IMG/VR virus record: IMGVR_UViG_2531839662_000018
Coordinates: 1-12,903 of that record
Direction: 5' to 3' (one strand)
DNA: 12,903 nt
Origin: a virus
Taxonomy: Duplodnaviria > Heunggongvirae > Uroviricota > Caudoviricetes
The translations under genes and the position numbers were made by a program. Below are positions 1 to 11,857 of this stretch, one piece after another; position 1 is the first letter of the stretch, and the number at the start of each line of letters is the position of its first letter. A model generated the notes under the pieces. That model was given only the letters and a program-made list of their open reading frames with translations, searched no databases and was not told where the DNA came from.

Positions 1-1242
1 ATGGCACGAAAAACCACCCCACTAACCATTACGGAGATCAAAAACGCACGACCAGGGGAAAAGGAATACACCCTGCAGGATGGTGGAGGATTATTTCTTC
101 TGGTGAAACCCTCCGGATCAAAAATCTGGCGTTTTACGTACTATCGCCCGGCAGATAAAAAACGGACTATCATCAGCCTCGGATCGCTGAATGATGTTTC
201 CCTGTCCGATGCCAGAGAACGACGGAATGAATACAGGTCACTCATAGCGAAGGGAGTTGACCCACAGGACCACGAACGCCGGAAACGTGAAGCAGAGAGT
301 CGGAAAAAGGGCAACACGTTCGAAAAAGTTGCCTCGGACTGGTACGAGATGAAAAAAGGCCAGAATCTGGCTTACAACACGATTAAGGATATCTGGCGAT
401 CCCTGGAAAAATACGTATTCCCGTACATCGGAAACACGCCAATAGATACCCTCACAGCTCGCCGCTTTGTTGAGATACTCACACCCATTAAAGCACGCGG
501 CAACCTGGAAACCCTGAAACGCGTTTTACAACGCATCAATGAAGTGATGGATTTTGCTGCCAACAGTGGGCTGATTGACATCAACACCGCCGCGAACGTC
601 CGCAAGGCATTCCCCTCACCCACCAAAAAGCACATGCCAACCATCCGACCGGAACAGCTACCGCAGCTAATGCACGATTTATCGGTCGCCAGCATAGAAC
701 GGCAAACCAGATTGCTGATTGAGTGGCAACTGCTGACCGTAGCACGCCCAGCCGAAGCAGCCGCCGCACGCTGGGAAGAAATAGATCTCGATGCCGAAAC
801 CTGGACGATTCCAGCCGGACGCATGAAGATGCGCCGTGACCATGTGATCCCTCTTTGCGGTCAGGCGATGGCTGTACTGGAAACAATGAAGCCAATCAGC
901 GCACACAGGGAACATGTTTTTCCCAGCCTTAAAAATCCAATGCTGCCAATGAGCAGCCAGACCGCTAACGCTGCATTGCGCCGGATGGGATACGCTGGTG
1001 TGCTGGTGTCTCACGGATTACGCGCCATATTCAGTACAGCAGCGAACGAGGAAGGATTCGAGCCGGACGTAATCGAGGCCGCACTCGCACACGTGGACAC
1101 GAACGAGGTAAGGCGAGCATATAACCGAAGTAACTACCTGGAAAAGCGCGTGGTGCTTATGCGCTGGTGGGGGGAATTTGTAGAGGCCGCAGCTACCGGA
1201 GTGACCATAGCCAGTGGTAAAAGGGGTATCCGTGCCGTGTAA
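1..1242 (+). CDS. int: P4-type tyrosine integrase/recombinase (413 aa)
   Basis: Full ORF from ATG at position 1. N-terminal arm-binding region with the DGGGL motif typical of P4-family integrases (KEYTLQDGGGLFLLVKPSGSKIWRFTYY). C-terminal catalytic region has HGLR, a later AHV, and the nucleophile Tyr in RRAYNRSNYLEKRVVLMRWW. Identified by eye from conserved motifs. Confidence 0.95.
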   Translation: MARKTTPLTITEIKNARPGEKEYTLQDGGGLFLLVKPSGSKIWRFTYYRPADKKRTIISLGSLNDVSLSDARERRNEYRSLIAKGVDPQDHERRKREAESRKKGNTFEKVASDWYEMKKGQNLAYNTIKDIWRSLEKYVFPYIGNTPIDTLTARRFVEILTPIKARGNLETLKRVLQRINEVMDFAANSGLIDINTAANVRKAFPSPTKKHMPTIRPEQLPQLMHDLSVASIERQTRLLIEWQLLTVARPAEAAAARWEEIDLDAETWTIPAGRMKMRRDHVIPLCGQAMAVLETMKPISAHREHVFPSLKNPMLPMSSQTANAALRRMGYAGVLVSHGLRAIFSTAANEEGFEPDVIEAALAHVDTNEVRRAYNRSNYLEKRVVLMRWWGEFVEAAATGVTIASGKRGIRAV

Positions 1243-1340
1243 CTGTACAAAAAGCCAGTGCAACCAGTGAAAACCATGCCAAACCATCGTATAATTGCCA
1301 CAAATTTAACGACAAGGCCGGAGTATATGAAAATTCTATT

Positions 1341-1571
1341 ATGCAAAATACCACCGCCTACGGCGAAGGCCTGCAACTGGCCTTAATGGCAAATCGTGAA
1401 TTCTGGTCAACGTACGATCCGGAAGACAAATCAACAGCCCCCACAAAACACGAGGTAGTCAGTTTTTTGCGCTCGCGTGGCGCATCGAAAAATCTGGCTG
1501 AAAGCATCGACAAGGTGCTGAGACCCACCAGCCTTAAATGCGGTGGACGACCTAAGAAGTGGAAGCGGTAA
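1341..1571 (+). CDS. hypothetical small protein (76 aa)
   Basis: Open frame between int and alpA with a protein-like, charged composition. Its stop is followed immediately by an intrinsic terminator. The ribosome-binding site is weak: the nearby GGAG (1319-1322) is better placed for a 19-codon ORF at 1327. A TATAAT hexamer lies at 1290-1295. Confidence 0.4.
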   Translation: MQNTTAYGEGLQLALMANREFWSTYDPEDKSTAPTKHEVVSFLRSRGASKNLAESIDKVLRPTSLKCGGRPKKWKR

Positions 1572-1576
1572 TCACA

Positions 1577-1607
1577 ATAGCGGCCCTTTGCGGTCGCTAT
1601 TTTTTTG
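1577..1607 (+). terminator. rho-independent terminator after the int / small-ORF unit
   Basis: A roughly 9-bp stem (ATAGCGGCC / GGTCGCTAT, one G.T pair) with a CTTTGC loop, followed directly by a T7 run (1600-1606). Confidence 0.6.
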
Positions 1608-1636
1608 CAAAAAGAAAAGCGTAATCAATGAGATAA

Positions 1637-1676
1637 AAAACAGTGGGTACCGTTTTAAAACGGTGGGTACTGTTTT
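1637..1676. promoter_or_regulatory. two tandem 20-bp near-palindromic sites upstream of alpA (candidate operator)
   Basis: AAAACAGTGGGTACCGTTTT (1637-1656) is followed directly by AAAACGGTGGGTACTGTTTT (1657-1676), 18/20 identical. In each unit the 8-bp arms are inverted repeats of one another. They lie about 65 bp upstream of the alpA start. Confidence 0.4.
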
Positions 1677-1741
1677 TCCCGCCCTGCCCTGTTTTACCGT
1701 ATTTATCACCGGAATACGCCGGATTAACGAGGTAAAACATA

Positions 1742-1948
1742 GTGGAAACAATCAGAAAAATCCTTACCCGTCAGGAAGTAAAAAATATTCTGCGCATCAA
1801 GGCAGACAGTTCGCTACAGGACATGATCAACGCCGGAAAATTCCCGAAAGGCTTCAAAATCGGTCTGCGTCGTGTTGGCTGGTATGAAGATGAGGTGCTG
1901 GCCTGGCTGAAAGAACGCGAGGAAGAAGCGCGCGGAACGGCTGCGTAA
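1742..1948 (+). CDS. alpA: AlpA-family (excisionase-like HTH) transcriptional regulator
   Basis: 68-codon ORF with a GTG start and a GAGGT Shine-Dalgarno about 10 nt upstream. The sequence fits the AlpA pattern (FPKGFKIGLRRVGWYEDEVLAWL), and int followed by alpA is the canonical order in these islands. Confidence 0.85.
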   Translation: METIRKILTRQEVKNILRIKADSSLQDMINAGKFPKGFKIGLRRVGWYEDEVLAWLKEREEEARGTAA

Positions 1949-1967
1949 TGGTGTGAGGCGTAACGCG

Positions 1968-2954
1968 ATGAACATAACAAAAAGCGCCCCGTTGCCGGAG
2001 CGCCTTTGTGAACGAATAGCCTACTGCGCCATATTGCTTACTGTCTACGAGGCAGATTATAGCGTTGTGGTCGCACAGAGTGAAGGCGCTGATCACCGTT
2101 ACTACAGCACGCCAGAAATGCAGAATATTTTGCTGCAAAATGCCGTTGGTCACGCCGTCCGGAAAGCAAAAAATTTTGCTGGTGGCGCGACTGATGCGAT
2201 TTTGTCAGGTCGCCAGGTGCTGATCAATCTGATGTCTGATTTCGTTCTGGATAAAACAAAGGCGACCGCAGAGAGCCGCCAGTGGAAAAGCTACATACTT
2301 GAACGCATCACCAACAATGCCACATTTGCGGCTGGTGGGCAAAGCGTAACCGGAAAAAAATTCCGGTGGGGCTATTCCTGCTCTTTGGCCTTGCGACGCT
2401 GGCGGTATTCAACTTCTCGCTTTAATGCTGCTGTTACAAACTGCCCTGTACTTTCACCAGGCATTTTTACCGCCTCAACATTGTTCATAACTTCATGCGG
2501 AACCCTTGCCGCAACTGTTTGTGATTTTGCGTTTACTGCTTTTGTTGCCATGTTGTGTACCCCTTACAAAAAACAAATGCAGTATGCAGGAAAAAAAATA
2601 AGTGTTCAACACTTGACGTGTTTAACACCAGGGCTTAAATTGGTGTTCAACACCTTACTGATGCAAGGTGCAGAAACGACGAAACCCGGCAGTGCGCTAA
2701 CACTAACCGGGCTTCTAACCACCAACGATAGAAAGCGTATCGAGGTAGCTATGAGAAATTATACCAGACACCCGCAAGGGCGGGACTCGTACAACCTGAA
2801 TAAATACATCTGGCGTTTTATCGCCCTGAGCACGGCACAACCGCGCGTGATTCACATCGTGGCCACCAGCGAACAGGAAGCACGCCAGCAATCCCCGGCT
2901 GGCTGCGTGATGGTATTCGCTGCCCGTATTCGCCAGGAGGTACGCCATGATTAA
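1968..2954 (+). CDS. long stop-free frame (328 aa from ATG 1968); probably a composite, not one protein
   Basis: The 5-prime 400 nt has a GAGG ribosome-binding site 9 nt upstream and coding-like, purine-rich first codon positions. The middle (2372-2654) reads as Cys/Ser/Thr/Phe-rich junk, is antisense to a well-formed RHH ORF, and contains three perfect palindromes plus a promoter. The 3-prime 204 nt (ATG 2751, GAGGT site) ends in an ATGATTAA overlap with the next gene. A gene finder would likely call the whole ORF; I consider that call doubtful. Confidence 0.3.
   Translation: MNITKSAPLPERLCERIAYCAILLTVYEADYSVVVAQSEGADHRYYSTPEMQNILLQNAVGHAVRKAKNFAGGATDAILSGRQVLINLMSDFVLDKTKATAESRQWKSYILERITNNATFAAGGQSVTGKKFRWGYSCSLALRRWRYSTSRFNAAVTNCPVLSPGIFTASTLFITSCGTLAATVCDFAFTAFVAMLCTPYKKQMQYAGKKISVQHLTCLTPGLKLVFNTLLMQGAETTKPGSALTLTGLLTTNDRKRIEVAMRNYTRHPQGRDSYNLNKYIWRFIALSTAQPRVIHIVATSEQEARQQSPAGCVMVFAARIRQEVRHD
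2372..2551 (-). CDS. ribbon-helix-helix (Arc/CopG-like) transcriptional repressor candidate, 59 aa
   Basis: Minus-strand ORF MATKAVNAKSQTVAARVPHEVMNNVEAVKMPGESTGQFVTAALKREVEYRQRRKAKEQE, below the ORF-track length cutoff. It has a beta-strand/helix/helix RHH pattern, an AAGGGG Shine-Dalgarno 8 nt upstream, and G/A-rich first codon positions, while the opposite strand looks antisense. It is transcribed divergently from the adjacent palindromic operators. Confidence 0.55.
   Translation of the reverse strand: MATKAVNAKSQTVAARVPHEVMNNVEAVKMPGESTGQFVTAALKREVEYRQRRKAKEQE
2601..2654 (+). promoter_or_regulatory. rightward sigma70-like promoter overlapped by three palindromic operators
   Basis: Palindromes AGTGTTCAACACT (2601-2613), GTGTTTAACAC (2618-2628) and GGTGTTCAACACC (2642-2654). 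Candidate -35 TTGACG (2613-2618) and -10 TTAAAT (2635-2640) with a 16-bp spacer. One operator sits just upstream of the -35, one in the spacer and one just after the -10. Confidence 0.55.
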
Positions 2955-3312
2955 CCTGTCAATTTCTGACCTTAACAGCATTCAGTTTGATGAGAAATTC
3001 ACCGGGCAGCTACTGGTTAACGTGGAGAATGGACGCGTGGCAAGTAATTATCACCTGCCGGATGGTGCAATTGCCGGAAGCGTTGAAGCATTGCTGGAGC
3101 TGGCAGAACGTGCGCGACTGATTAAGCCGTTAACGAGCCATCACGATGATGATCTGCATTTTACCGGACGCATGGTGAGTCACTACGAAAACGGCGTTGA
3201 AGTATCCCGAGAACGGCTGCGAGATGATTGCTGTTTCGGAACACTGCCGGAATTTATCGAATTGCTGACCAGTTGCGGTTATCAGGTTATTCAGGGGGTG
3301 AATCATGGATAA
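2947..3312 (+). CDS. hypothetical protein (121 aa); paralog of the next gene
   Basis: Strong AGGAGG Shine-Dalgarno 6 nt upstream. The start overlaps the upstream frame stop (ATGATTAA). Its N-terminal half resembles the downstream 66-aa protein. Confidence 0.75.
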   Translation: MINLSISDLNSIQFDEKFTGQLLVNVENGRVASNYHLPDGAIAGSVEALLELAERARLIKPLTSHHDDDLHFTGRMVSHYENGVEVSRERLRDDCCFGTLPEFIELLTSCGYQVIQGVNHG

Positions 3313-3505
3313 TCAGCAAGCAACAATGACAATTACCCTGAGTGTGCCAGATGATTTCACCGGACGCATACTGGTTTACCTGGATAAAGGGAAAGTGAAA
3401 TCACAATGCCGACTGAAAAGTAATGAGATTGTTGGTTCTCCTGAATTTTTTTCTGAACTCTGTATTCGTGCGGAAATAAAACCGGAACTGCTGACAGGAA
3501 AATAA
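3305..3505 (+). CDS. hypothetical small protein (66 aa); paralog of the N-terminal half of the previous gene
   Basis: Overlaps the previous gene by 8 nt, with a GGGGGTG ribosome-binding site. The two proteins share an alignable block (DDFTGRILVYLDKGKV ... IVGSPEFFSELCIRAEIKP versus DEKFTGQLLVNVENGRV ... IAGSVEALLELAERARLIKP). Confidence 0.7.
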   Translation: MDNQQATMTITLSVPDDFTGRILVYLDKGKVKSQCRLKSNEIVGSPEFFSELCIRAEIKPELLTGK

Positions 3506-3509
3506 AACC

Positions 3510-3809
3510 ATGAAAAAGAAAAATTCTGGCTTTACTGCCAGTGGTCTCCCTCGGCCTGAAATCCGCCCCGGCGATATTTTCCGGGATAACTACGGCGGCA
3601 CGGTAACGATTAAAAGTATTGCCGGACGGTGCGTTACTTACCGCCGTGATGGGTACAGCTACGACTGCGTGATGCCTGTTTATCAGTTCCGGCGTGATTT
3701 TTCACTGATACAGGCCACACCACGCAAACAGCCCACCAGCAACGCAAAGGCACGGGCAAATATTCAGAAAATGAAAAACATGATTAACGCATTCAGGGGC
3801 ACAAAATGA
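3510..3809 (+). CDS. hypothetical protein (99 aa)
   Basis: Tightly packed in the operon; its stop overlaps the next start (ATGA). No family recognised. Confidence 0.7.
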   Translation: MKKKNSGFTASGLPRPEIRPGDIFRDNYGGTVTIKSIAGRCVTYRRDGYSYDCVMPVYQFRRDFSLIQATPRKQPTSNAKARANIQKMKNMINAFRGTK

Positions 3810-5221
3810 AACTGGCACCGAACTTAAAAAAACAGCCACACGACAAAATGACCGAAGTCATTATTTTTGCGGGTAGTGATGCCTGGGCGCACGCGAAACA
3901 GTGGCAGGAGCAGGACGGGCGACTTGCTGGCGACAACGTGCCGCCTGTATGGCTGGGAGACAGCCAGCTTGACGAACTGGCAGACCTGAAAATTATCGAC
4001 GATGGTCGCTATTGTGTCCGGCTGTACAAGGCAGGCCACATCAAGCCGTCAAATATTAACGCCATCGGGCAAAAGCTGGCGGCGGCAGGTGTACGGGATG
4101 CGAATTATTACCCCGAGGGAATGCACAGCCAGAAACGCGAGGAGTGGCGCGAATATCTGGAACGAGAGCGCCAGAAAAGACTGTCCGGAGAGATACCAGA
4201 GGAAGAAAAAAACGACCAGCGAAAAACCACACTGCCAATGAGTATTGGATCTGCAGGGTACGACACACAGCTTGATTATGTCGTTAAGGGCGTGATTCCG
4301 GCTAATTCATTGTGCAGCACATACGGCGCGAGCGGTTCCTATAAATCGTTCCTCGCGTGTTCCTGGGCGTGTCATGTTGCCACGGGTCGCCACTGGGGAG
4401 GCCGCAGGGTGGCGCATGGTTCGGTGATGTATGTCGTCGGTGAAGGTGGCATTGGTGTCCCTCGTCGTATCAAAGCATGGGAAATCGTTAATGATGAACG
4501 GGTGAAAAATCTGTACCTGGTAAACCGCCCGATTTTTCCGGCGGTCCCGCTTGATGTTGATGAAATGGTCATCGCTTCCCGTCAGGTTGAACGGGAAACG
4601 GGTAAACCGGTACGCATGATTATTCTGGATACGCTGGCGCGTTGCTTTGGCGGTAATGATGAAAATGACGCGCGGGATATGGGGGCGTTTATCCGTGGAT
4701 GTGACGAACTGAAACGACGCACAGGGGCTACGGTACTGGTGGTTCACCATTCCGGCAAGGATGAAACAAAAGGGGCGCGTGGTTCCAGTGCATTTCGTGC
4801 ATCTCTGGACGCTGAATACCGTATTCGCCGTGAAGGTGCGGACAGTGAAGCCCTGGTTATCTCCTGCACCAAAATGAAGGACGCGGAGGAACTGAAAGAG
4901 GCTGCATATGATTTACGCGTGGTGGAGCTTTTTACCGACACTGACGGGGAGTTAATCACGTCGCTGGTGGTTGTGGATAAGCCGCGCCCACCTGTTGAAC
5001 TGGAACGCATCGAGGAGGCCGGGAACAAGACGGAAAATCACGCTGCGCTATGGCAGTGCATCAGAACGCGAACAGCACACGGGGAGGCGTGCACTATCGC
5101 CCTTCTCCGCGATGATATGAAAAAGCTGGGGTATGAAATGAAAAACTTCCGGCGCTGGCTGTACAAGCTGGAAAGCGACGGCGTAATCGCTATTGACGGT
5201 GATTATGTGCGCCCACTGTAA
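3806..5221 (+). CDS. replication protein with RepA-like RecA-fold helicase/ATPase domain (471 aa)
   Basis: P-loop-like YGASGSYKSF, Walker-B-like MIILDTLARCF and the LVVHHSGKD motif typical of RepA/AAA_25-type replicative ATPases. The N-terminal domain of about 160 aa is of unknown type. The gene is followed immediately by an iteron array. Confidence 0.85.
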   Translation: MKLAPNLKKQPHDKMTEVIIFAGSDAWAHAKQWQEQDGRLAGDNVPPVWLGDSQLDELADLKIIDDGRYCVRLYKAGHIKPSNINAIGQKLAAAGVRDANYYPEGMHSQKREEWREYLERERQKRLSGEIPEEEKNDQRKTTLPMSIGSAGYDTQLDYVVKGVIPANSLCSTYGASGSYKSFLACSWACHVATGRHWGGRRVAHGSVMYVVGEGGIGVPRRIKAWEIVNDERVKNLYLVNRPIFPAVPLDVDEMVIASRQVERETGKPVRMIILDTLARCFGGNDENDARDMGAFIRGCDELKRRTGATVLVVHHSGKDETKGARGSSAFRASLDAEYRIRREGADSEALVISCTKMKDAEELKEAAYDLRVVELFTDTDGELITSLVVVDKPRPPVELERIEEAGNKTENHAALWQCIRTRTAHGEACTIALLRDDMKKLGYEMKNFRRWLYKLESDGVIAIDGDYVRPL

Positions 5222-5612
5222 AAAGTGAGGAGCAAAAGTGAGGATGGCGGGTAATTTAACAAAAAATCAACGCCACTCCTCACTTTCTCACCTGTATATA
5301 GGTCAAAAAGTGAGGAATGAAAAACATATTGTAAAACAAGACATTACAACAACAAGAAAAACAGGTGAGGAGCAGGACGGGAATAACAAAAAGTGAGGAA
5401 CAAAAGTGAGGAATGGTGAGTTAATAGAAATGAGGTAATAAAAATAACAGGTAGGTTAAAAAACACACCATGCAAGATATTAACTAAAACTTAACTATTT
5501 ACCTCACTTTTGCGTATATATAAGGATTAAAAAGTGAGTACTTAAAAATACATTTAAAATCATATTGTTATTAACTTCATAAATTTTCACTGTGCAGCAG
5601 GTGAGGAATTAA
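5221..5612. repeat. iteron array / candidate replication origin
   Basis: At least nine copies of the core AAAGTGAGGA, with CAGGTGAGGA variants, in both orientations (for example 5221-5232, 5235-5245, 5278-5287 reversed, 5305-5319, 5361-5372, 5387-5399, 5402-5415, 5501-5510 reversed, 5598-5610). They are embedded in AT-rich DNA with no ORF, directly downstream of the rep gene. Confidence 0.75.
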
Positions 5613-5687
5613 AAAATCAGGAATGTTAAAAATGAAAACAGAATGTTGTGTCAGTGCCGTTGGGCAACGTAGCAATCAGTAAAAACG

Positions 5688-6230
5688 ATGGGGCAAAGCA
5701 TGACTAAGCTGACCATTAACAGAAAACCTAAAGGCATTTACGGCACGCCGCAGAAAACGACGCAGGCGGCGCAGGAGCAGGATAAAACCACGTCGGCGCA
5801 TAAAGTGATGCCCGGTAACCAGAAAGCGCAGCAGAAGCCCACAGGGGCGACACCGTGGCGGCATATGACCAAACGCCAGCGCAAAAACCGCAGGCGCGTT
5901 AACCGCCTTATCGAACTGTGGCCAGAATTATTCAGCCGGGAAGCACCGAAGCCGCTTAAGGTGGGGATATTTGACGACCTGATGCAGGATCTCGCCGTCA
6001 GGGGGCTGGCATTCGGGCCAGGGGCATTACGTGCGACGCTGGCATCTTATGCGCAGTGTCCGCGCTATTACCGCGCCTTAATGGCTGGTGGGGTACGCTA
6101 CGACCTGAAAGGCCAGCCGTGCGGCGAGGTGACACCACAGGAACAACAGGACGCAGAAACGCGGCTGGTGGCGCTGAATGAGAAGCGCAAACGTCAGCGC
6201 CGGGCAGCAAAGGAGAAAACAGGCGCATGA
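5688..6230 (+). CDS. ProQ/FinO-domain RNA-binding protein
   Basis: The central region (PLKVGIFDDLMQDLAVRGLAFGPGALRATLASYAQCPRYYRALMAGGVRYDLKGQPCGEV) matches, from memory, the conserved ProQ N-terminal/FinO domain. Basic Lys/Arg-rich N- and C-terminal tails. An alternative start at ATG 5700 has a better GGGG ribosome-binding site. Confidence 0.85.
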   Translation: MGQSMTKLTINRKPKGIYGTPQKTTQAAQEQDKTTSAHKVMPGNQKAQQKPTGATPWRHMTKRQRKNRRRVNRLIELWPELFSREAPKPLKVGIFDDLMQDLAVRGLAFGPGALRATLASYAQCPRYYRALMAGGVRYDLKGQPCGEVTPQEQQDAETRLVALNEKRKRQRRAAKEKTGA

Positions 6231-6514
6231 TTCACGACAGCAAAGCGGAAGCACTGGAAGCGCGTGGTCTGTACCGGAGAGCGGCGGCGCGGTGGGCTGA
6301 GGTCATCATGCTGGCGAATGATGACAAGGCACGGGAACAGGCGGCAAAACGTCGCGCGGAATGTATCCGCAAGGCAGCACGCCCACCAGCACGGCAGGAT
6401 AATTTCGGGGAGATGCGCGAAACCATCAGCCGGGCACATGCCGGGATGGGATTACATCAGCCCAATGGTAAGGCATTCAGGAAATACCCTGGATCGAAAA
6501 ATTGCAGTCAGTGA
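6227..6514 (+). CDS. PerC-like small transcriptional regulator candidate (95 aa)
   Basis: The start overlaps the previous stop (ATGA). The N-terminus (KAEALEARGLYRRAAARWAEV) resembles the conserved opening of PerC-family regulators, recalled from memory without alignment. Basic, Arg-rich protein. Confidence 0.6.
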   Translation: MIHDSKAEALEARGLYRRAAARWAEVIMLANDDKAREQAAKRRAECIRKAARPPARQDNFGEMRETISRAHAGMGLHQPNGKAFRKYPGSKNCSQ

Positions 6515-6544: not shown

Positions 6545-6555
6545 TGCCAGTAAAA

Positions 6556-6590
6556 AGCCCGCAGCCAGAAGTGTTGCGGGCTTTGTTTTT
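6556..6590 (+). terminator. rho-independent terminator 2 (tandem)
   Basis: 8-bp stem AGCCCGCA / TGCGGGCT with an 11-nt loop, followed by TTGTTTTT. Confidence 0.7.
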
Positions 6591-6715
6591 CAGGTGATTG
6601 AAGTCAATGGGAAGAACGCGATCATCATGCGTTATTGTTTCATAAATTGCAATGATGTAGATCGTCATTTCAGTTTGTGCAATCATAATCGTTGTTTTGT
6701 TCAGGAGATATGACT

Positions 6716-6889
6716 ATGAGAAAAGCCAGCGTGAAACCCGTTTTACTCGCTCGTGAGCAGATTGAAGCATTACAGCGCATCCAGGACGAGGAACGCCGCA
6801 ATTCTCCGCTGGGGATTGCTCCGAGCATTCATGAGGTCGCCCGGCGTTTAATGCAGCGGGCGCTTTATCCCGTAGAACGTCCGGCCTGA
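6716..6889 (+). CDS. hypothetical small protein (57 aa), first gene of the downstream operon
   Basis: ATG at 6716 with an AGGAG Shine-Dalgarno (6703-6707, 8-nt spacing). The ORF-track start at 6692 lacks a ribosome-binding site. An AT-rich promoter-like region lies at 6600-6700. Confidence 0.55.
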   Translation: MRKASVKPVLLAREQIEALQRIQDEERRNSPLGIAPSIHEVARRLMQRALYPVERPA

Positions 6890-6928
6890 TGGTCGTGATT
6901 TTTTGGTGAAAAAAGAGAGGTGGTAACA

Positions 6929-7513
6929 ATGCCAGCAAGCAAAGAAGATTTGCGATTAAAACTGATGGAGGTGGTTAACGCTCTGTCAGAGTCGCAGGGC
7001 AGCACTCCGCAGGAGATTATCGAAATTCTGAATGCGATCCCCGCACAGGATTTCACAAAAGCAGATGAGGACAACGCGAATCAAAACATCGTCGCGTCAG
7101 TCGAAGATGAATCCTCACTGGCAGAAGCCCAGGCTAAAGCAGATTCCGCATACAGCAATATGGGCCGTCGCGCTCCAGCCCCGTTTGCTGGTGAAAAGTC
7201 GATGGATTACCGCAAGCGTGCATTAATTGGTGCACAGAAGCTGGCTAAAAAATTCAGTGATGTGGATATTCGTTCCGTTTCAGATTCTGCAACGCTGGCG
7301 GTGCTGGAAGATCAGATTTACCAGGCTGCAAAAGACAGTGTTCAGTGGGCCGTGGAAAACACGCCGGGCCATTTGGGTAAAACCGTAAGAATGGATGAAG
7401 CTGGTCGTCGTATTACTGAATATCAGGGCGATCCGAACGTCTGGCTGAACGCCTTCAAAATCCCTCCCCGTCGCCTGGTCAAAATTAACACTGCAAGCCT
7501 CGCGGGGGCATGA
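6929..7513 (+). CDS. hypothetical protein (194 aa)
   Basis: ATG at 6929 with an AGAGAGG ribosome-binding site 8 nt upstream; the ORF-track start is a GTG at 6920. Acidic N-terminal half. No family recognised. Confidence 0.75.
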   Translation: MPASKEDLRLKLMEVVNALSESQGSTPQEIIEILNAIPAQDFTKADEDNANQNIVASVEDESSLAEAQAKADSAYSNMGRRAPAPFAGEKSMDYRKRALIGAQKLAKKFSDVDIRSVSDSATLAVLEDQIYQAAKDSVQWAVENTPGHLGKTVRMDEAGRRITEYQGDPNVWLNAFKIPPRRLVKINTASLAGA

Positions 7514-7577
7514 AAAACGTGCTGAGTTCAGCCCTGCCGGATTTGGCGGGGCTTATTGCTTATAACCGGATAACATT

Positions 7578-8249
7578 ATGCTTTTAACAGAAATTGAGGC
7601 GGCAAAGCAGATTCGGGACGGTCAGCTACCGTCGCCTTATCAGTTTTCCAACATGTGGCTGGTTAACCTGCGTATTACAGGAACCGGTATGGCCTACCGC
7701 GCCGAAGAAAAAGAATTTGTCTGGCGTTCACCGCAAACTTATCTCAATCCGCAGTTCCTGGAACGTTGCGCCGGAGTACCCGTCATTATCGACCATCCCG
7801 AAGGCAAAACCATTGAAGACGTTGGCGAACGGTCGCGCATTATTGGCACCGTCATGTTGCCGTATATTCGCGGTGACGAGGTGTGGGGTGTATGCCGGAT
7901 TTACGGGCAGGAAATCATCGATTACATCCAGAAAGCACGGGGGGAGGTATCCACCAGCCCGTCGGTTGTGTTTTGTGGTGCGTCCGGTGGGGCAGAAGTT
8001 CCTGATGTAATGGGCGAGGACAATTTTTTCATTGAGGGTACGCCATTCCTTATCGATCACGTTGCGCTCGTGCCGCTTGGTGTTTGGGATAAGGGCGGGA
8101 AACCATCGGGTGTGGAGGTAACAACGCCGACAGCAGAAGAACAGCTCGCCGGAATGGTCCGGGACGTTATTGATGCGGCCTGCAAGCCAGCCCTGGAAAA
8201 ACTGGAAGAAATATCCGGGCGGCTGGCTCAACTGGAAAAAACAGAGTGA
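7578..8249 (+). CDS. hypothetical protein (223 aa)
   Basis: Protein-like composition; only a weak ribosome-binding site. A faint resemblance to phage prohead-protease-like folds (PVIIDHPEG ... IGTV ... EVSTSPSV) is too weak to call. Confidence 0.75.
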   Translation: MLLTEIEAAKQIRDGQLPSPYQFSNMWLVNLRITGTGMAYRAEEKEFVWRSPQTYLNPQFLERCAGVPVIIDHPEGKTIEDVGERSRIIGTVMLPYIRGDEVWGVCRIYGQEIIDYIQKARGEVSTSPSVVFCGASGGAEVPDVMGEDNFFIEGTPFLIDHVALVPLGVWDKGGKPSGVEVTTPTAEEQLAGMVRDVIDAACKPALEKLEEISGRLAQLEKTE

Positions 8250-8256
8250 GTGAATC

Positions 8257-8874
8257 ATGAAAATTGCTAAAAACTTAAATCTGATTATCCCTGTGCGCAC
8301 TGAAAAGGGAAATGGCTGGATCCATGCCACGCCGATCAGCAAAGAGGTGTTTAAAGAGCATTTCTTCATCCTGAGTAAAACCTTTTCTGCCATTTTTTCT
8401 GAAGGTCTTGGTGTTGTTGCGGGTCCGCGCGTTGCCTGCCTTATGCTGGAGAAAATCTCCCGTGACTCCGGTTTATGGGATGGGGAGAAAGGCATACGTA
8501 ATACGCTCATAAACGAAATTATTCGCCTGGCAAACCTTGTTTATCCAGTGGAGGGCAAAGGCTACGACACAATCCCTCTCGATATGGCGCTGGAGCGTGA
8601 AATCGTTGATTTGGACGAAGTGGCGGGTGAACTTGTTTTTTTTACATGCGTCTCGTCGATAAATTCCCCGGAGCAGACGAAGGGGACTATGGATGCGGTG
8701 AATGGAATATGGAGCACTCAATGCTCGTCCTTGAGTCTTACGGAATGGATCGCTTCATTGCCGACATTGAAGCCTGCCGTCAGTTCTGGCGCGACGGCGA
8801 ACACGTCATCAGCGACATCCTCGACTACTCAGCCGGAGCCGGATTCAGAGACATCTGTGCAGATTCCGGTCTGA
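8257..8874 (+). CDS. hypothetical protein; zero-frame product 205 aa, candidate upstream partner of a -1 frameshift pair (G-like)
   Basis: The first 129 codons are protein-like. After the T8 run (8636-8643) the zero frame becomes Ser/Thr-rich low complexity until its stop at 8874, while the -1 frame carries a well-formed ORF. Confidence 0.6.
   Translation: MKIAKNLNLIIPVRTEKGNGWIHATPISKEVFKEHFFILSKTFSAIFSEGLGVVAGPRVACLMLEKISRDSGLWDGEKGIRNTLINEIIRLANLVYPVEGKGYDTIPLDMALEREIVDLDEVAGELVFFTCVSSINSPEQTKGTMDAVNGIWSTQCSSLSLTEWIASLPTLKPAVSSGATANTSSATSSTTQPEPDSETSVQIPV
8636..8643 (+). other. T8 homopolymer forming a U UUU UUU slippery heptamer (candidate -1 programmed frameshift site)
   Basis: Zero-frame codons GTT TTT TTT ACA. 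A -1 slip re-pairs both tRNAs on TTT and continues as TAC ATG into the frame of ORF 8646-8939. Confidence 0.4.
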
Positions 8875-8939
8875 ATGTAAAAACAGCAGCTCAGTTTCGT
8901 GAGCTGCTCAAATTCAAAAATCCCGCAGGAGTATTGTAA
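8646..8939 (+). CDS. -1 frame ORF (97 aa from its first ATG), probably the C-terminal extension of a frameshift fusion (GT-like)
   Basis: This frame opens at 8631 just before the slip site. Its stop overlaps the start of the 679-aa gene (TAATG). Protein-like composition (FIADIEACRQFWRDGEHVISDILDYSAGAGFRDICADSGLNVKTAAQFRELLKF). Internal ATGs at 8709 and 8721, the latter with a GGAG ribosome-binding site, allow independent initiation as an alternative. Confidence 0.5.
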   Translation: MRLVDKFPGADEGDYGCGEWNMEHSMLVLESYGMDRFIADIEACRQFWRDGEHVISDILDYSAGAGFRDICADSGLNVKTAAQFRELLKFKNPAGVL

Positions 8940-10978
8940 TGTCAGGTAATCAGATGCCAGTTCTAACGCTGGACGTTAATGAAGAACACCTCAAACGGCT
9001 TGAGGCAATTTTTGAAAAGTATCGCAACGGGCTGATGATCGGCCCTGCCGGAACGCCGATGAAAATACCGGGGCAAAGTGGGCGCAGCGTGGGGGCAGGC
9101 TTACCCGTGGCGGCAAAATCTGGTCGGACAGGACCGGATGTATCCGGGAGAGTGAGGGACGAAAAAGGGCGCTTTGTCGGCAGCGGAAAAACAGCAGATT
9201 CGTTCGTAAGCAACTATAAAGGTCGCGGCGAAACGATGTTTGATAAGTATCTCAGCGGGCTGGGGAAAAATGCCCAACAGACGCTGAAAACTTACAAGCA
9301 GATCAATTCTACACTACAGACGACCACTTCAAGATTAAACAACCTGTTTAAAACAACCGTATCGTGGGGAACAAAACTCTCGGTTATGGGCGTTGCCGGA
9401 CCGTTTGGCTTTGGCATGATGTCCCGTAGTGTTGTAGAGAAACAGAAAAATGCAGATGAGCTGGTGGCAACGCCAGGAGAGTTAAAGGCGGCAGAAAGCA
9501 CTTATTCGCCTTATTTTTCCGGTGTTGGCAATGTGCTCAATACACTGGCAGCAGCACAAAATGATATATCGCATCCTGCCCGCGTCGGCCTGCTTAATCT
9601 GGGGCTAAATCCTGATAAAAACGCGACTGAAAACCTGCCTGTATTCCTGAAAAAGGTTGCAGCGCTGGCAAAGGAATATCAGGGAACTGGTCTTACCCAG
9701 AGCAATTTCAGAGGAATGGGGCTTGGATGGGTAAATTTTGGTCTTACTAACCAGTTAGTCAAATATCAGGACAAAATACCTGAACTCAACAAAGAGTTTT
9801 CGTTACGTGCAGCGCAGAATGATTCGTTACTGACCTCTGCACATACAAGTAAATATCAGAATCTTACCAGTAACCTGGAAAAAAACTGGGATCGGCTTAC
9901 CAGCGGATTTCAGGGAGCAATGGCGGGGAATGAAGACGCTTTAATCAGAATGTCTGATGGTACCACGAATGCTGCCCTGAATTTCATGAATGGTGAGAAC
10001 TTTAAAAGGATTCTGACTGATGTTGAAACGGGGCTGGATAAACTTGGTAAGTACGTTAATGGCCCGGATTTTAATAACGACCTGAACAATTTTGCCGAAA
10101 ACGTTGCAAAGGTCACCAAGGCACTTAGCGGATTTGTTGGTTTTGCCGTTGAACATCCCTGGCTTTTTGGGGCCGCAGTGCTTGCGGGGCCATCAAGAGT
10201 TGGTGCCGTGGCAGCCACAACAACCGGAGTTGCCGCTCGTGTTGTCGGTGGAAGTCTTCTTGGGGCTACAGCCGGAACAGTAGCAGGATTGGCTATTCCT
10301 ACAAATAACACACCTACCACCAGTGAGGAAATGAAAGGGCTGGAGGGGCGTTTCAACTTTGATTATTTTAACGAAGTGCAGGAGTGGCAAAAAAACAATC
10401 CGGGTAAGGTCTGGCCTGGAGGATTGCAGGGATTTTCAAATCAAGTAAACAGATCTGCATATTTATCCAGAGGGATCAGGAATAACAATCCCGGAAATCT
10501 TAATTTCGCAGGACAAAAAGGGGCTACTCTGGAATCGGGGCCAAATGCCCGTTTTGCCAGCTTCCCGACGATGCTGGAAGGCATTGCCGCCTTAGATCGG
10601 CAGGTAATGCTATACCTGAAACGCGGCAAAAATACGATTGATCAGATTATTGATATTTATGCCCCTTCATCTGATGGAAATAACACATCGTCCTATAAAA
10701 GCTATCTTTCTCAGTACACCGGATTAGGTGTTAAGGAGAAAATTGATGGTTCTAATTTTGAGGTCATGAAAAAGCTAATTCAGGGCATTATTAACCATGA
10801 AAATGGTGCTGCCGCTAAAGCTGTAAGTGTTGAAGATGTGATCCGGGCGCTGGCTATGAATCGTGGGATTGTCCCTGCAGCAGGAAACAATGATCAGAAC
10901 GTTAAGTTGGAAATTGTTCGGAACGCTGGTGCCGATTACTTCGCGCAACTAATTGGTGCTCAACGGTTCCTGGGATGA
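8939..10978 (+). CDS. large protein (679 aa) with Gly/Ala-rich hydrophobic core; tape-measure-like candidate
   Basis: Strong AGGAG ribosome-binding site, coupled to the upstream ORF. An Asn/Thr/Gly-rich N-terminal 400 aa. A hydrophobic segment FAVEHPWLFGAAVLAGPSRVGAVAATTTGVAARVVGGSLLGATAGTVAGLAIP (nt about 10143-10300). A C-terminal domain of about 220 aa containing the motif RGIRNNNPGNL (nt about 10471-10503). Confidence 0.9.
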   Translation: MSGNQMPVLTLDVNEEHLKRLEAIFEKYRNGLMIGPAGTPMKIPGQSGRSVGAGLPVAAKSGRTGPDVSGRVRDEKGRFVGSGKTADSFVSNYKGRGETMFDKYLSGLGKNAQQTLKTYKQINSTLQTTTSRLNNLFKTTVSWGTKLSVMGVAGPFGFGMMSRSVVEKQKNADELVATPGELKAAESTYSPYFSGVGNVLNTLAAAQNDISHPARVGLLNLGLNPDKNATENLPVFLKKVAALAKEYQGTGLTQSNFRGMGLGWVNFGLTNQLVKYQDKIPELNKEFSLRAAQNDSLLTSAHTSKYQNLTSNLEKNWDRLTSGFQGAMAGNEDALIRMSDGTTNAALNFMNGENFKRILTDVETGLDKLGKYVNGPDFNNDLNNFAENVAKVTKALSGFVGFAVEHPWLFGAAVLAGPSRVGAVAATTTGVAARVVGGSLLGATAGTVAGLAIPTNNTPTTSEEMKGLEGRFNFDYFNEVQEWQKNNPGKVWPGGLQGFSNQVNRSAYLSRGIRNNNPGNLNFAGQKGATLESGPNARFASFPTMLEGIAALDRQVMLYLKRGKNTIDQIIDIYAPSSDGNNTSSYKSYLSQYTGLGVKEKIDGSNFEVMKKLIQGIINHENGAAAKAVSVEDVIRALAMNRGIVPAAGNNDQNVKLEIVRNAGADYFAQLIGAQRFLG

Positions 10979-11029
10979 TTTAAATACACGCGCTTTCCGG
11001 CGCATTAATACAGTCTGAGGGGAAGTGTC

Positions 11030-11554
11030 ATGTTTATGAGCAAGGCAGAATATGCCAAACACAAAGGCGTAAGCCGCCAGACAGTTTACGACTGGATCGA
11101 GAAAGGCGAAGTGGTCATGTCCGGTAAAAAAATCGATGTGGAAGCGACAGAGCAGCGGAACAGCCCACCAGCACAGGGAAAAGATACCGTTTCTGAAATG
11201 TGGCCAGAGAGAACGCTGGAAATGACGTGGGGCGAGTTCTGGAAAGCAGTTAAGGCCAGAGACGGTAAAATCCCTGCACCAGTAACGGACGATGACATAC
11301 AGCAGCGTGTGCAGGATGCAGCCGGGGAATTATGCTGTGAAGTGCAATTTCTTGATGATGGTGCTATCTGCCTTGAGGATTATGCTGGGCAATATTACTT
11401 TGAGCAGTATGATTTTCGGGAAAATGCCAGGCTGGCAATTCGTATGCTGCGTTGTGAGCTCTGCTATGTTGCAGGTGATTGTCCCGATGAGCTGGATAAC
11501 TGGAGTGAAGCCGGACTAAACGCCCTGGCTGAGTGGGAAAAATCATCCCATTAA
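11030..11554 (+). CDS. HTH DNA-binding protein (174 aa), excisionase/terminase-small-subunit-like N-terminal HTH with Cys-rich C-terminal domain
   Basis: GAGGGGAAG ribosome-binding site. The N-terminus (KAEYAKHKGVSRQTVYDWIEKGEV) is a classic HTH of the Xis/AlpA/TerS-Nu1 type. The C-terminal half has six Cys (CCEVQF ... CLEDY ... CELCYVAGDC). Confidence 0.8.
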   Translation: MFMSKAEYAKHKGVSRQTVYDWIEKGEVVMSGKKIDVEATEQRNSPPAQGKDTVSEMWPERTLEMTWGEFWKAVKARDGKIPAPVTDDDIQQRVQDAAGELCCEVQFLDDGAICLEDYAGQYYFEQYDFRENARLAIRMLRCELCYVAGDCPDELDNWSEAGLNALAEWEKSSH

Positions 11555-11565
11555 TGACCGTAAAA

Positions 11566-11857
11566 TTCGCGAAAAGTGTCAAGTCAGGCCGTCTGCCGGG
11601 TTGACACTTTACACTCTGAACGCGAAAAAGTGTCAACCTCGCTGTAAACCCCGCCGTTACTGGCTTTGCGCCAGATTTACCACGTCAAAAAGCCGAAAAA
11701 ATCGCGAAAAGTGTCAAGTTGCCATGCTTAGAAATGCTAAGGTTTGATAAGGTTTTTCGCGAAAAAGTGTCAAGTGTGTCAACCTGCGATGTTAAGGTTT
11801 GTTAAGGTCTTAAGCCGGAAAGTGTCAACCAGCCCCCTAAGATTTCCTAAGGTGTAA
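11566..11857. repeat. array of two interleaved short repeat families (candidate protein-binding or packaging/origin-like site)
   Basis: Family 1 is CGCGAAAAGTGTCAAG and variants (11566-11584, 11621-11638, 11702-11720, 11757-11784, 11817-11830, plus an inverted copy TTGACACTTT at 11601-11610). Family 2 is (C/T)TAAGGT(T/C)T in six copies (11738-11757, 11791-11814, 11836-11857). The region has no ORF. Confidence 0.7.

Follow-up and report, generated by a model that had tools for sequence, protein, structure and literature searches.

A tape measure protein with an Enc34-type hydrolase domain in a satellite-like island of Escherichia coli: a candidate case of satellite tail remodelling

What does a satellite-like island do with the gene of a phage tail tape measure protein (TMP), when no capsid, portal, large terminase, sheath, tube or baseplate gene is found in it? 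The question is raised by the window studied here, i.e., the whole 12,903-nucleotide stretch of IMG/VR record IMGVR_UViG_2531839662_000018 (Caudoviricetes), which is 100% identical to positions 2,651,638-2,664,540 of the E. coli UMNF18 chromosome, between tRNA-Pro/yejM and yejO. Its open reading frame (ORF) at 8939-10978 on the plus strand runs from ATG to TGA and encodes 679 amino acids, as an earlier model-made reading of the letters (the original prediction) had stated. By its homology, this protein is almost certainly a TMP with a muralytic domain. The TMP and the tail assembly chaperone encoded upstream of it very probably constitute a satellite-borne cassette, and the overall explanation we favour, which we consider probable though not strongly so, joins these two points with a proposed use of the cassette in chimeric tails assembled with a helper phage, likely a Rac-like myovirus. 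The features on which this reading is built are the following.

8252-11029, plus strand: chaperone-TMP cassette, a precise 2.78-kb presence/absence polymorphism, absent from the ETEC1747 island
8257-8874, plus strand: tail assembly chaperone (G-like), 205 aa, 83-86% identical to phage ORFs between tube and TMP
8637-8643, plus strand: slippery heptamer T_TTT_TTT for a predicted -1 programmed frameshift, after chaperone codon 128, conserved in five elements
8631-8939, plus strand: -1 frame extension (T part of the predicted G-T fusion chaperone), equal to the 97-aa ORF 8646-8939, PHROG 14324 at E = 3.5e-61
8939-10978, plus strand: TMP, with 88% full-length identity to its homologue in the UMNF18 Rac-like prophage
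10172-10300, plus strand: hydrophobic Ala/Gly/Val/Thr-rich segment, aa 412-454, candidate membrane-inserting part by composition and hydropathy
10460-10858, plus strand: PHA02564 / Enc34-endolysin-type lysozyme-like domain, aa 508-640, assigned from phmmer, Foldseek and catalytic residues
10871-10975, plus strand: island-specific C-terminal tail of the TMP, aa 645-679, ending ...AGADYFAQLIGAQRFLG, with a terminal helix predicted at aa 667-678

The TMP gene is real rather than a chance ORF, given its full-length match to PHROG 7694 (E = 7e-290; a family labelled 'unknown function'), the hundreds of intact homologues of the 679-aa protein, and a ratio of nonsynonymous to synonymous substitutions (dN/dS) of 0.07-0.17. 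Its ATG overlaps the TAA that closes the -1 frame of the chaperone (TAATG), with AGGAG 8 nt upstream. Between the island TMP and the 686-aa protein P0115 of the UMNF18 Rac-like prophage, identity is 88% from end to end. When phages were searched with tblastn, gp56 of phage vB_Apl-pPE4 (pPE4) was among the best matches, with 89% identity over TMP aa 1-501, followed by a 'lytic transglycosylase' of Rac-SA53 (51% over aa 1-414) and by proteins of the Yersinia vB_YenM phages (23% over aa 8-621). The homologues in pPE4, Rac-SA53 and Yersinia vB_YenM_21.09 come after a 445-aa sheath, a tube of about 145 aa and a 205-aa ORF, and in these three phages as well as in the UMNF18 prophage, where sheath (PHROG 205), tube and chaperone genes likewise precede it, a baseplate hub (PHROG 196) and wedge genes lie 3' of the homologue. 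The tail-module position, from chaperone through TMP to hub, is therefore taken by homologues 88%, 89%, 51% and 23% identical to the island protein; in the island itself, the chaperone is the sole tail-module neighbour of the TMP.

Database labels say little of this. NCBI names are 'hypothetical' or 'lytic transglycosylase domain-containing', Pfam gave no real match to the TMP (DUF4897 alone, below the cut-off) and NCBIfam none, and PADLOC returned nothing for the TMP or for eight other island ORFs. Full-length fold matches in BFVD are named 'virion protein', 'phage tail lysozyme domain-containing protein' and 'tail tape measure'. The AlphaFold2 (AF2) model, built on 68 diverse homologues, is 59% helical overall and 78% helical for aa 100-410. 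The first 400 residues had been described as rich in Asn, Thr and Gly; this holds only mildly (G 10.7%, L 10.5%, N 8.7%, A 7.7%, T 7.5%), and the region is better called helical. The protein is a TMP of the kind found in Rac-like temperate myoviruses, composed of a helical ruler, a Gly/Ala-rich hydrophobic segment, a hydrolase domain and a short C-terminal helix.

Inside the ruler part, aa 160-300 (window 9416-9838) are modelled as a helical domain with a predicted local distance difference test score (pLDDT) of 91-98. This domain has no significant match among PDB structures, and a single substitution, V175Q, separates it from the corresponding stretch of the helper TMP. A degenerate SLT domain in the N-terminal domain, a candidate prompted by the string 'AAESTYSP', was dropped because it gave no match at all.

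The gene directly upstream belongs to the same tail module. The 205-aa chaperone matches PHROG 11810 and is 86% identical to its counterparts in the UMNF18 helper prophage and pPE4, 83% to that of Rac-SA53, and 33% to that of the Yersinia phage. In all five elements, i.e., the island, the UMNF18 prophage, pPE4, Rac-SA53 and the distant Yersinia phage, the heptamer T_TTT_TTT follows codon 128, and the -1 frame past it stays open for 98-107 codons, stopping at or slightly beyond the TMP start. The protein predicted from this frame is 75-79% identical at the amino acid level to the same frame in the E. coli phages, and matches the Yersinia phage with E = 3.5e-6. This is the classic G/GT arrangement of tail assembly chaperones, with the frameshift predicted from the conserved site and frame. 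No PDB sequence matched the chaperone, the DUF2213 ORF or the 174-aa helix-turn-helix (HTH) protein described below, and an iterated hidden Markov model search over all ORFs of 101 loci gave no additional chaperone homologues.

Two further parts of the TMP had been singled out by the original prediction, namely a hydrophobic segment of tape-measure or membrane-inserting type, and a C-terminal domain of about 220 aa that might act on the cell wall. The hydrophobic 43-aa stretch quoted there lies exactly at aa 412-454. Ala, Gly, Val and Thr make up 74% of it, or 91% together with Leu, Ile and Ser, and the highest 19-residue Kyte-Doolittle mean of the TMP (1.66) falls within it, in a wider hydrophobic zone at aa 395-455. 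The stretch is broken by two Arg, is modelled with a pLDDT below 50, and has an identical sequence in the helper TMP. The end-to-end homology to TMPs and the synteny of the phage homologues bear out the tape-measure reading of this segment.

The motif RGIRNNNPGNL is present at aa 511-521 (10469-10501), in a conserved folded part of about 130 aa (508-640) rather than the 220 aa first proposed, with a linker before it and a tail of 35-40 aa after it. Searching this domain, predicting its structure and comparing the model with Foldseek all led to one family (PHA02564, with 7q47 as its structure). A phmmer search against PDB sequences matched the endolysin of Hafnia phage Enc34 (7q47; E = 1.2e-10, aa 508-625) and the N-terminus of a 1295-aa 'Gp29' (9vvp; E = 3.6e-12), and matches to PHROG 873, 7182 and 2276 fall on the same stretch. 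In the AF2 model, aa 510-640 have a pLDDT above 93, and aa 508-640 adopt an all-helical fold resembling the alpha-lobe of lysozyme. The sole significant Foldseek match among PDB structures is 7q47 (E = 1.6e-6, probability 1.00, target TM-score 0.72, root-mean-square deviation 3.0). After a +1 offset in the chain numbering of 7q47 was corrected, Enc34 residues Trp79, Tyr95 and Glu131 align to Y574, Y586 and E621 of the TMP; the putative catalytic Glu621 (10799-10801) lies in the motif HENG. In a 10-sequence alignment reaching down to 26% identity, R514, N515-517, P518, N520, L521, Y586 and E621 are invariant.

The Enc34 endolysin has been placed in family PHA02564, with an all-helical fold like the lysozyme alpha-lobe, a catalytic Glu131 and important Tyr95 and Trp79 (PMC8943055). 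Its domain is muralytic, and the authors argue that an N-acetylglucosaminidase is more probable than a lytic transglycosylase (PMC8943055). From sequence, predicted fold and conserved catalytic residues, the C-terminal domain of the TMP is identified as a putative peptidoglycan hydrolase of this Enc34 type (PHA02564), and the cell-wall-active option of the original prediction is thus the one that stands. The island domain shares with Enc34 ORF39 (PDB 7Q47) the lysozyme alpha-lobe-like fold, the RNNNPGN motif and the triad of catalytic Glu, Tyr and an aromatic residue. However, ORF39 is a 26-kDa enzyme of a lysis cassette, with an N-terminal catalytic domain and two C-terminal transmembrane helices, whereas the island domain sits near the C-terminus of a virion structural protein.

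Such a location is not unusual for the domain. PHROGs labelled tape measure, 'endolysin' (1277 aa) or 'tail injection transglycosylase' contain it as well, as do podophage internal virion proteins, and it is therefore a common virion-associated wall hydrolase. Peptidoglycan hydrolase motifs were reportedly noted by Piuri and Hatfull in 2006 in TMPs such as that of mycobacteriophage TM4, which resembles the island protein in having a muralytic domain within a TMP that aids infection, and differs from it in enzymatic family and host envelope. In pPE4 and Rac-SA53, an SLT-type domain replaces the PHA02564 domain at the same position, and both flanks are homologous. Hence, the enzymatic module is swapped among phages, independently of the island.

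The original prediction regarded the protein as novel unless its C-terminal domain hit a well-characterised family with confidence and the full protein matched annotated tape measure proteins from end to end. Given that the domain is assigned and homologues match throughout, the TMP is not novel as a protein, even though those homologues are annotated as 'lytic transglycosylase' or 'virion protein', and not as tape measure. Taken by itself, the protein belongs to kinds already known: it is a TMP that contains a domain predicted to be an Enc34-type hydrolase. This description closes an annotation gap for the protein. What is out of the ordinary is the element that carries the gene, of which the remaining main features are listed here.

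1-5613, plus strand: satellite backbone, with an integrase (1-1242), AlpA (1742-1948), an Icd-like gene, DUF4222, a RepA-family helicase (3806-5221) and five iterons (5219-5613)
6920-8249, plus strand: two DUF2213 ORFs (6920-7513 and 7578-8249), candidate capsid remodelling genes, parts of a 440-aa helper gene in permuted order
11030-11554, plus strand: 174-aa protein with an N-terminal HTH, weakly like the N-terminus of a terminase small subunit

Direct repeats of 26 nt, 13.2 kb apart, flank the island, and Pfam matches in its backbone are Phage_integrase, Phage_AlpA and AAA_25/RepA. ProQ/FinO and PerC genes follow the iterons, and a terminator-like hairpin (6554-6584) precedes a late block in which a 65-aa ORF, the two DUF2213-derived ORFs, the chaperone, the TMP and the 174-aa HTH protein follow each other. 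The island has the backbone of a phage-inducible chromosomal island (PICI), namely an integrase, AlpA, and a helicase with an adjacent putative origin of replication, and its size of about 13 kb is within the range of 10-15 kb. It resembles the PICIs of E. coli in its integrase, AlpA, primase/helicase, origin and size, and in lacking most virion genes. Classical PICIs are defined as being without structural genes. The island departs from this definition, since a TMP, a tail chaperone and scaffold-derived ORFs are present; for this reason, the element is called PICI-like. It also differs from the capsid-forming PICIs (cf-PICIs), as it has neither capsid nor portal and is not capsid-forming. Putative tmp genes have been noted in cf-PICIs and in mycobacterial EPIPs, the latter in a preprint (PMC12822802). 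No description of the present island family was found in the searchable literature, which did not cover subscription papers.

A candidate helper resides in the same strain. The Rac-like myovirus prophage of UMNF18 (L087; 1,707,983-1,730,043), which carries P0115, has a portal, a DUF2213 protease/scaffold-like gene, a major head gene, a tail sheath (PHROG 205), a hub (PHROG 196) and wedge genes according to PHROG scans; almost every one of its structural genes is called 'hypothetical protein' in the annotation. At the DNA level, window 8257-10868 shares 89% identity with this prophage, and the DUF2213 ORFs share 65-69%. The head-tail/sheath block of the helper type is found in 86 of 5426 complete E. 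coli genomes (1.6%), and at least four of the 15 cassette-bearing genomes (UMNF18, ETEC1716, STEC719 and TUM1881) also carry the helper, a lower bound as 60 of the 86 helper genomes were listed (binomial P of about 7e-5 against the 1.6% background, uncorrected for relatedness). Co-residence and enriched co-occurrence make the Rac-like myovirus the likely helper of the island. Helper-bearing genomes also include E. coli W, KO11FL, LY180 and two records labelled DH5alpha.

The Rac-like TMPs (P0115, pPE4 gp56 and that of Rac-SA53) resemble the island TMP in their end-to-end homology, the same chaperone and frameshift site, and the hydrophobic segment; they have the same PHA02564 domain, or SLT in pPE4 and Rac-SA53. 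They differ in that theirs are located in a tail module and the island's in a satellite, and in their last 17-35 residues or so.

That the chaperone-TMP pair is a cassette is clearest in the ETEC1747 island, which has the same integrase and is located at the same tRNA-Pro site, but in which the DUF2213 stop runs directly into the HTH gene. The two islands are 97% identical up to window position 8251 and 91% identical from 11030, and homology breaks at precisely 8251/11030. Among the 5426 complete E. coli genomes, 34 carry the island DUF2213 block (at least 80% coverage), 15 of which have the junction from DUF2213 to the chaperone. At least four island backbones, which differ in integrase and replicase, carry the cassette; it occupies three chromosomal sites in E. 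coli, and is also present in one Salmonella island. More generally, the same late block is joined to other integrases, to other replicases (a DUF927 primase, a DNA primase) and to other chromosomal sites. Islands of Citrobacter sp. NCU1 and Pantoea stewartii have an integrase, a primase, PerC, a TMP with about 39% identity and the DUF2213 pair; their gene order is different, and the Citrobacter island also has TerS-like genes. The scan for related loci, run with 10 sequences, keyed on RNNNPGNL and mostly returned unrelated carriers of the domain, with L006 and L007 as the only full-length relatives.

In the Pantoea stewartii island (L007), which is interrupted by apparent duplicated insertion elements, a hub homologue (12232-13251; PHROG 196, 50% identical to the 335-aa hub of pPE4) lies beside the TMP. 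Across the island family, the trio of TMP, chaperone and hub is complete, as it is in the PLEs discussed below; L007 alone is without a detectable chaperone homologue.

Among island copies, the TMP has a dN/dS of 0.07-0.17 at a dS of 0.09-0.23, and dN is 0-0.008 in the hydrophobic segment (dS 0.10-0.27) and in the enzymatic domain. All copies examined are intact, with no frameshift or premature stop seen. These data bear on the alternative that survives best, according to which the cassette is passenger DNA captured from the helper and kept intact by gene conversion, with no function in the island. The 89% DNA identity to the helper and the mosaic trees described below are as expected under that alternative, as is the optional presence of the cassette, i.e., in about 15 of about 34 E. 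coli genomes with the island DUF2213 block and with a precise cassette-less island among them. Passenger DNA would not, however, readily account for a cassette on at least four backbones at three E. coli sites and in one Salmonella island, for an island-specific 3' end kept across three backbones, or for the lack of any frameshifted or prematurely stopped copy among those examined. The Citrobacter and Pantoea TMPs speak against it as well, since their identity of about 39% and different gene order argue for independent retention of a TMP. We therefore regard the passenger explanation as unlikely.

The clearest difference between island and phage proteins lies at the C-terminus. In all six phage or prophage contexts checked (P0115, P0084, P0074, P0046, pPE4 and Rac-SA53), the TMP ends in ...PGSDI(L/V/Q)AQLAG(M/T)QQIPG, across both types of enzymatic domain and at 51-88% overall identity. 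The islands have four other endings, namely ...AGADYFAQLIGAQRFLG (QRFLG; the window, L089, L090 and L103), ...QQFHR (L002), ...SGLMPR (P0025) and ...VWVPR (P0081, from Salmonella). The ending of the island TMP keeps the pattern ...D..AQ..G..., with the conserved QQIPG replaced. Two assignments to island or phage were predicted from the sequence before their context was looked up. In segment trees, the 3' segment alone separates the E. coli islands from the prophages, although the Salmonella island L098 does not group with them, and the island-specific 3' end is conserved across three backbones. Island and helper TMP differ essentially only in these last 17-35 residues or so and in a variable N-terminal linker at about aa 40-85. 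That linker was also considered as an island-specific region and was rejected, given that the island form is also found in some prophages.

In the Pseudomonas myophage Pa193, the last 19 residues of the TMP form a helix and an extended tail that bind the tail tip gp44 and the hub gp42 (PMC11456595). As these docking residues are the equivalent stretch, the satellite TMPs are altered exactly at the docking end. This observation also opens the way to a second alternative, that of a poison subunit: a satellite TMP altered at its docking end would co-assemble or compete with that of the helper, cripple its tail assembly or DNA ejection, and lower its yield. Such a role would be in line with the contrast between a C-terminus invariant in six of six phage or prophage contexts and four different endings in islands, with the binding of tail tip and hub by the equivalent residues in Pa193 (PMC11456595), and with the tail-assembly interference documented for satellites and prophages (PMC11364771, PMC10884400, PMC12987554). 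Yet a poison would need neither an intact catalytic site nor a hydrophobic segment nor a frameshifting chaperone, all of which are conserved with dN near 0; the island itself depends on tails for its spread, and interference proteins are not known to be near-full-length copies of what they target. This alternative is judged to be rather improbable.

A degraded Rac-like prophage in which the TMP was simply left over is a very improbable source of the locus. It is true that Rac-like phages have homologues of three blocks, namely the DUF2213 parts, the chaperone and the TMP. However, the layout is compact and PICI-like, its integrase, AlpA, replicase and iterons are without counterpart in the structural halves of the phages compared, and the same architecture recurs in many strains and in three genera. 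Moreover, the DUF2213 genes are 53-59% identical to those of the helper and rearranged, whereas the cassette is 86-88% identical, and this inequality fits separate acquisitions and not decay in place. Finally, a free lysis enzyme, either a membrane-tethered endolysin like Enc34 ORF39 or a secreted toxin, is suggested by the catalytic domain family of a proven endolysin together with the hydrophobic segment, but is extremely improbable considering that homology to TMPs extends over the 500 N-terminal residues, that a frameshifting tail chaperone precedes the gene, that the domains stand in the opposite order to those of Enc34, and that no holin or spanin genes lie nearby.

The preferred reading, in which the satellite works via chimeric tails, takes its precedent from Vibrio PLEs. 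All of these satellites encode a TMP and a chaperone, and some encode a hub (Mathur, Boyd et al., Nature 2026, PMC12987554). These proteins replace the ICP1 proteins in PLE virions and are needed for efficient transduction, and, as the same paper remarks, putative tmp genes occur in other satellites (PMC12987554). By analogy, once a Rac-like helper is active, the late block of the island would express its own chaperone and TMP, which would be built into the contractile tails made by the helper. As in such phages, the TMP would fill the tail tube with its C-terminus anchored at the tip, and would leave first at infection. Its hydrolase domain could then open the cell wall locally, and its hydrophobic segment could help form a path for the DNA through the inner membrane. 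The rewritten tip-anchoring C-terminus would make the satellite TMP behave differently from that of the helper. Expression, incorporation into tails and a benefit to the island are all proposed on the strength of the PLE precedent; we see the chances that the island TMP is used in chimeric tail assembly with the helper as evenly balanced. As a broader and more tentative proposal, enterobacterial PICI-like satellites may carry a mobile chaperone-TMP cassette (with a hub in some relatives) that is copied from Rac-like helpers with its tip-anchoring residues rewritten, and that would let the satellite control TMP choice or tail firing.

The likeness to PLEs is that a satellite without sheath, tube and fibres encodes a TMP and a chaperone, that the helper has a contractile tail, and that a hub is present in the Pantoea relative. 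The differences are considerable, however. The two satellite families are unrelated, and so are their hosts; PLE proteins share about 20% identity with those of ICP1, whereas the island TMP is 88% identical to that of its helper; the island TMP recombines with that of the helper, the cassette is optional, and no change in tail length is predicted. No Rta-like tail inhibitor was identified in the island, although no search with PLE sequences was made. With host, helper and backbone unrelated, the relation to the PLE tail module would be one of analogy, and not of membership.

Several observations weigh against the chimeric-tail reading. The cassette is optional: an island almost identical to this one does without it, so that it is not required for maintaining the island and is perhaps dispensable for transfer too. 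In neighbour-joining segment trees, island and prophage copies of the TMP are interleaved along the gene body, which indicates ongoing recombination with helper copies. The purifying signal may hence be partly borrowed from the helper lineage, and clean selection within an island lineage was rejected on account of this exchange. The length of the island TMP is close to that of the helpers (679 aa versus 679-693 aa); a satellite-driven change in tail length was therefore rejected, and none is predicted, unlike for PLE11. The single-sequence AF2 model of the chaperone has a pLDDT of 34 and was not used for its fold. The changed C-terminus could equally make the island TMP a poison subunit.

The remaining genes of the late block also resemble helper genes or recur among islands. 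The first DUF2213 ORF corresponds to the C-terminal part of its helper counterpart (59% identity to aa 300-437) and the second to the N-terminal part (53% to aa 3-226), the counterpart being a single 440-aa putative scaffold gene of the DUF2213/Pa193_gp24 type (for the assignment of Pa193 gp24 as scaffold, see PMC11456595). The 65-aa ORF at the head of the block (6692-6889) is 65-68% identical to ORFs in the Citrobacter and Pantoea islands, and has no match to a Pfam or PADLOC family. For the 174-aa HTH protein, PADLOC gave a sub-threshold mad1 alone (E = 0.0084, 14.4 bits).

Outside the late block, the five iterons are 19 nt long (core AAAAAGTGAGGA), are spaced by 67-141 nt and lie directly 3' of the RepA-family helicase gene; they are probably the replication origin of the island. 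The genes of the ProQ/FinO-family RNA chaperone and the PerC-family regulator (5688-6514) are kept in every island variant seen. A small RNA of PLEs acts on helper tail-gene transcripts, and the ProQ/FinO RNA chaperone of the island is noted in that light; no Rfam family matched in the window. At 11558-11830, 3' of the HTH gene, about six copies of CGCGAAAA(A)GTGTCAA / GTGTCAAC are found. Every island of the family has these GTGTCAA repeats, whether or not it carries the cassette, and none of the fetched phage loci has them; they may be a pac site or an operator array. An element of about 65 nt (GCAGAATATTTTGCTG...GTCCGGAAAGCA..AAATTTTGCTG; window 2120-2181, L005 1184-1245) is 80% identical between the islands and pPE4, where it lies directly upstream of the block of small and large terminase genes. 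It may be a late-promoter or activator site, or a packaging signal, shared by the islands and pPE4.

Before 2025-2026, satellites were thought simply to take finished tails, until one family, the PLEs, was shown to rebuild the core of the tail. A satellite-borne TMP with its chaperone has so far been experimentally demonstrated only for that cholera-phage satellite, and the PLE work left open how a satellite TMP is selected and what the benefit is. The island family offers a near-isogenic pair of TMPs (88% identity), natural islands with and without the cassette, and a helper both in the same strain and in laboratory E. coli W, so that both questions could be tested directly. If the chimeric-tail explanation is true, chimeric-tail piracy would have arisen a second time and independently, in a host open to genetic work, and the locus is a probable second and tractable case of tail remodelling by a satellite.

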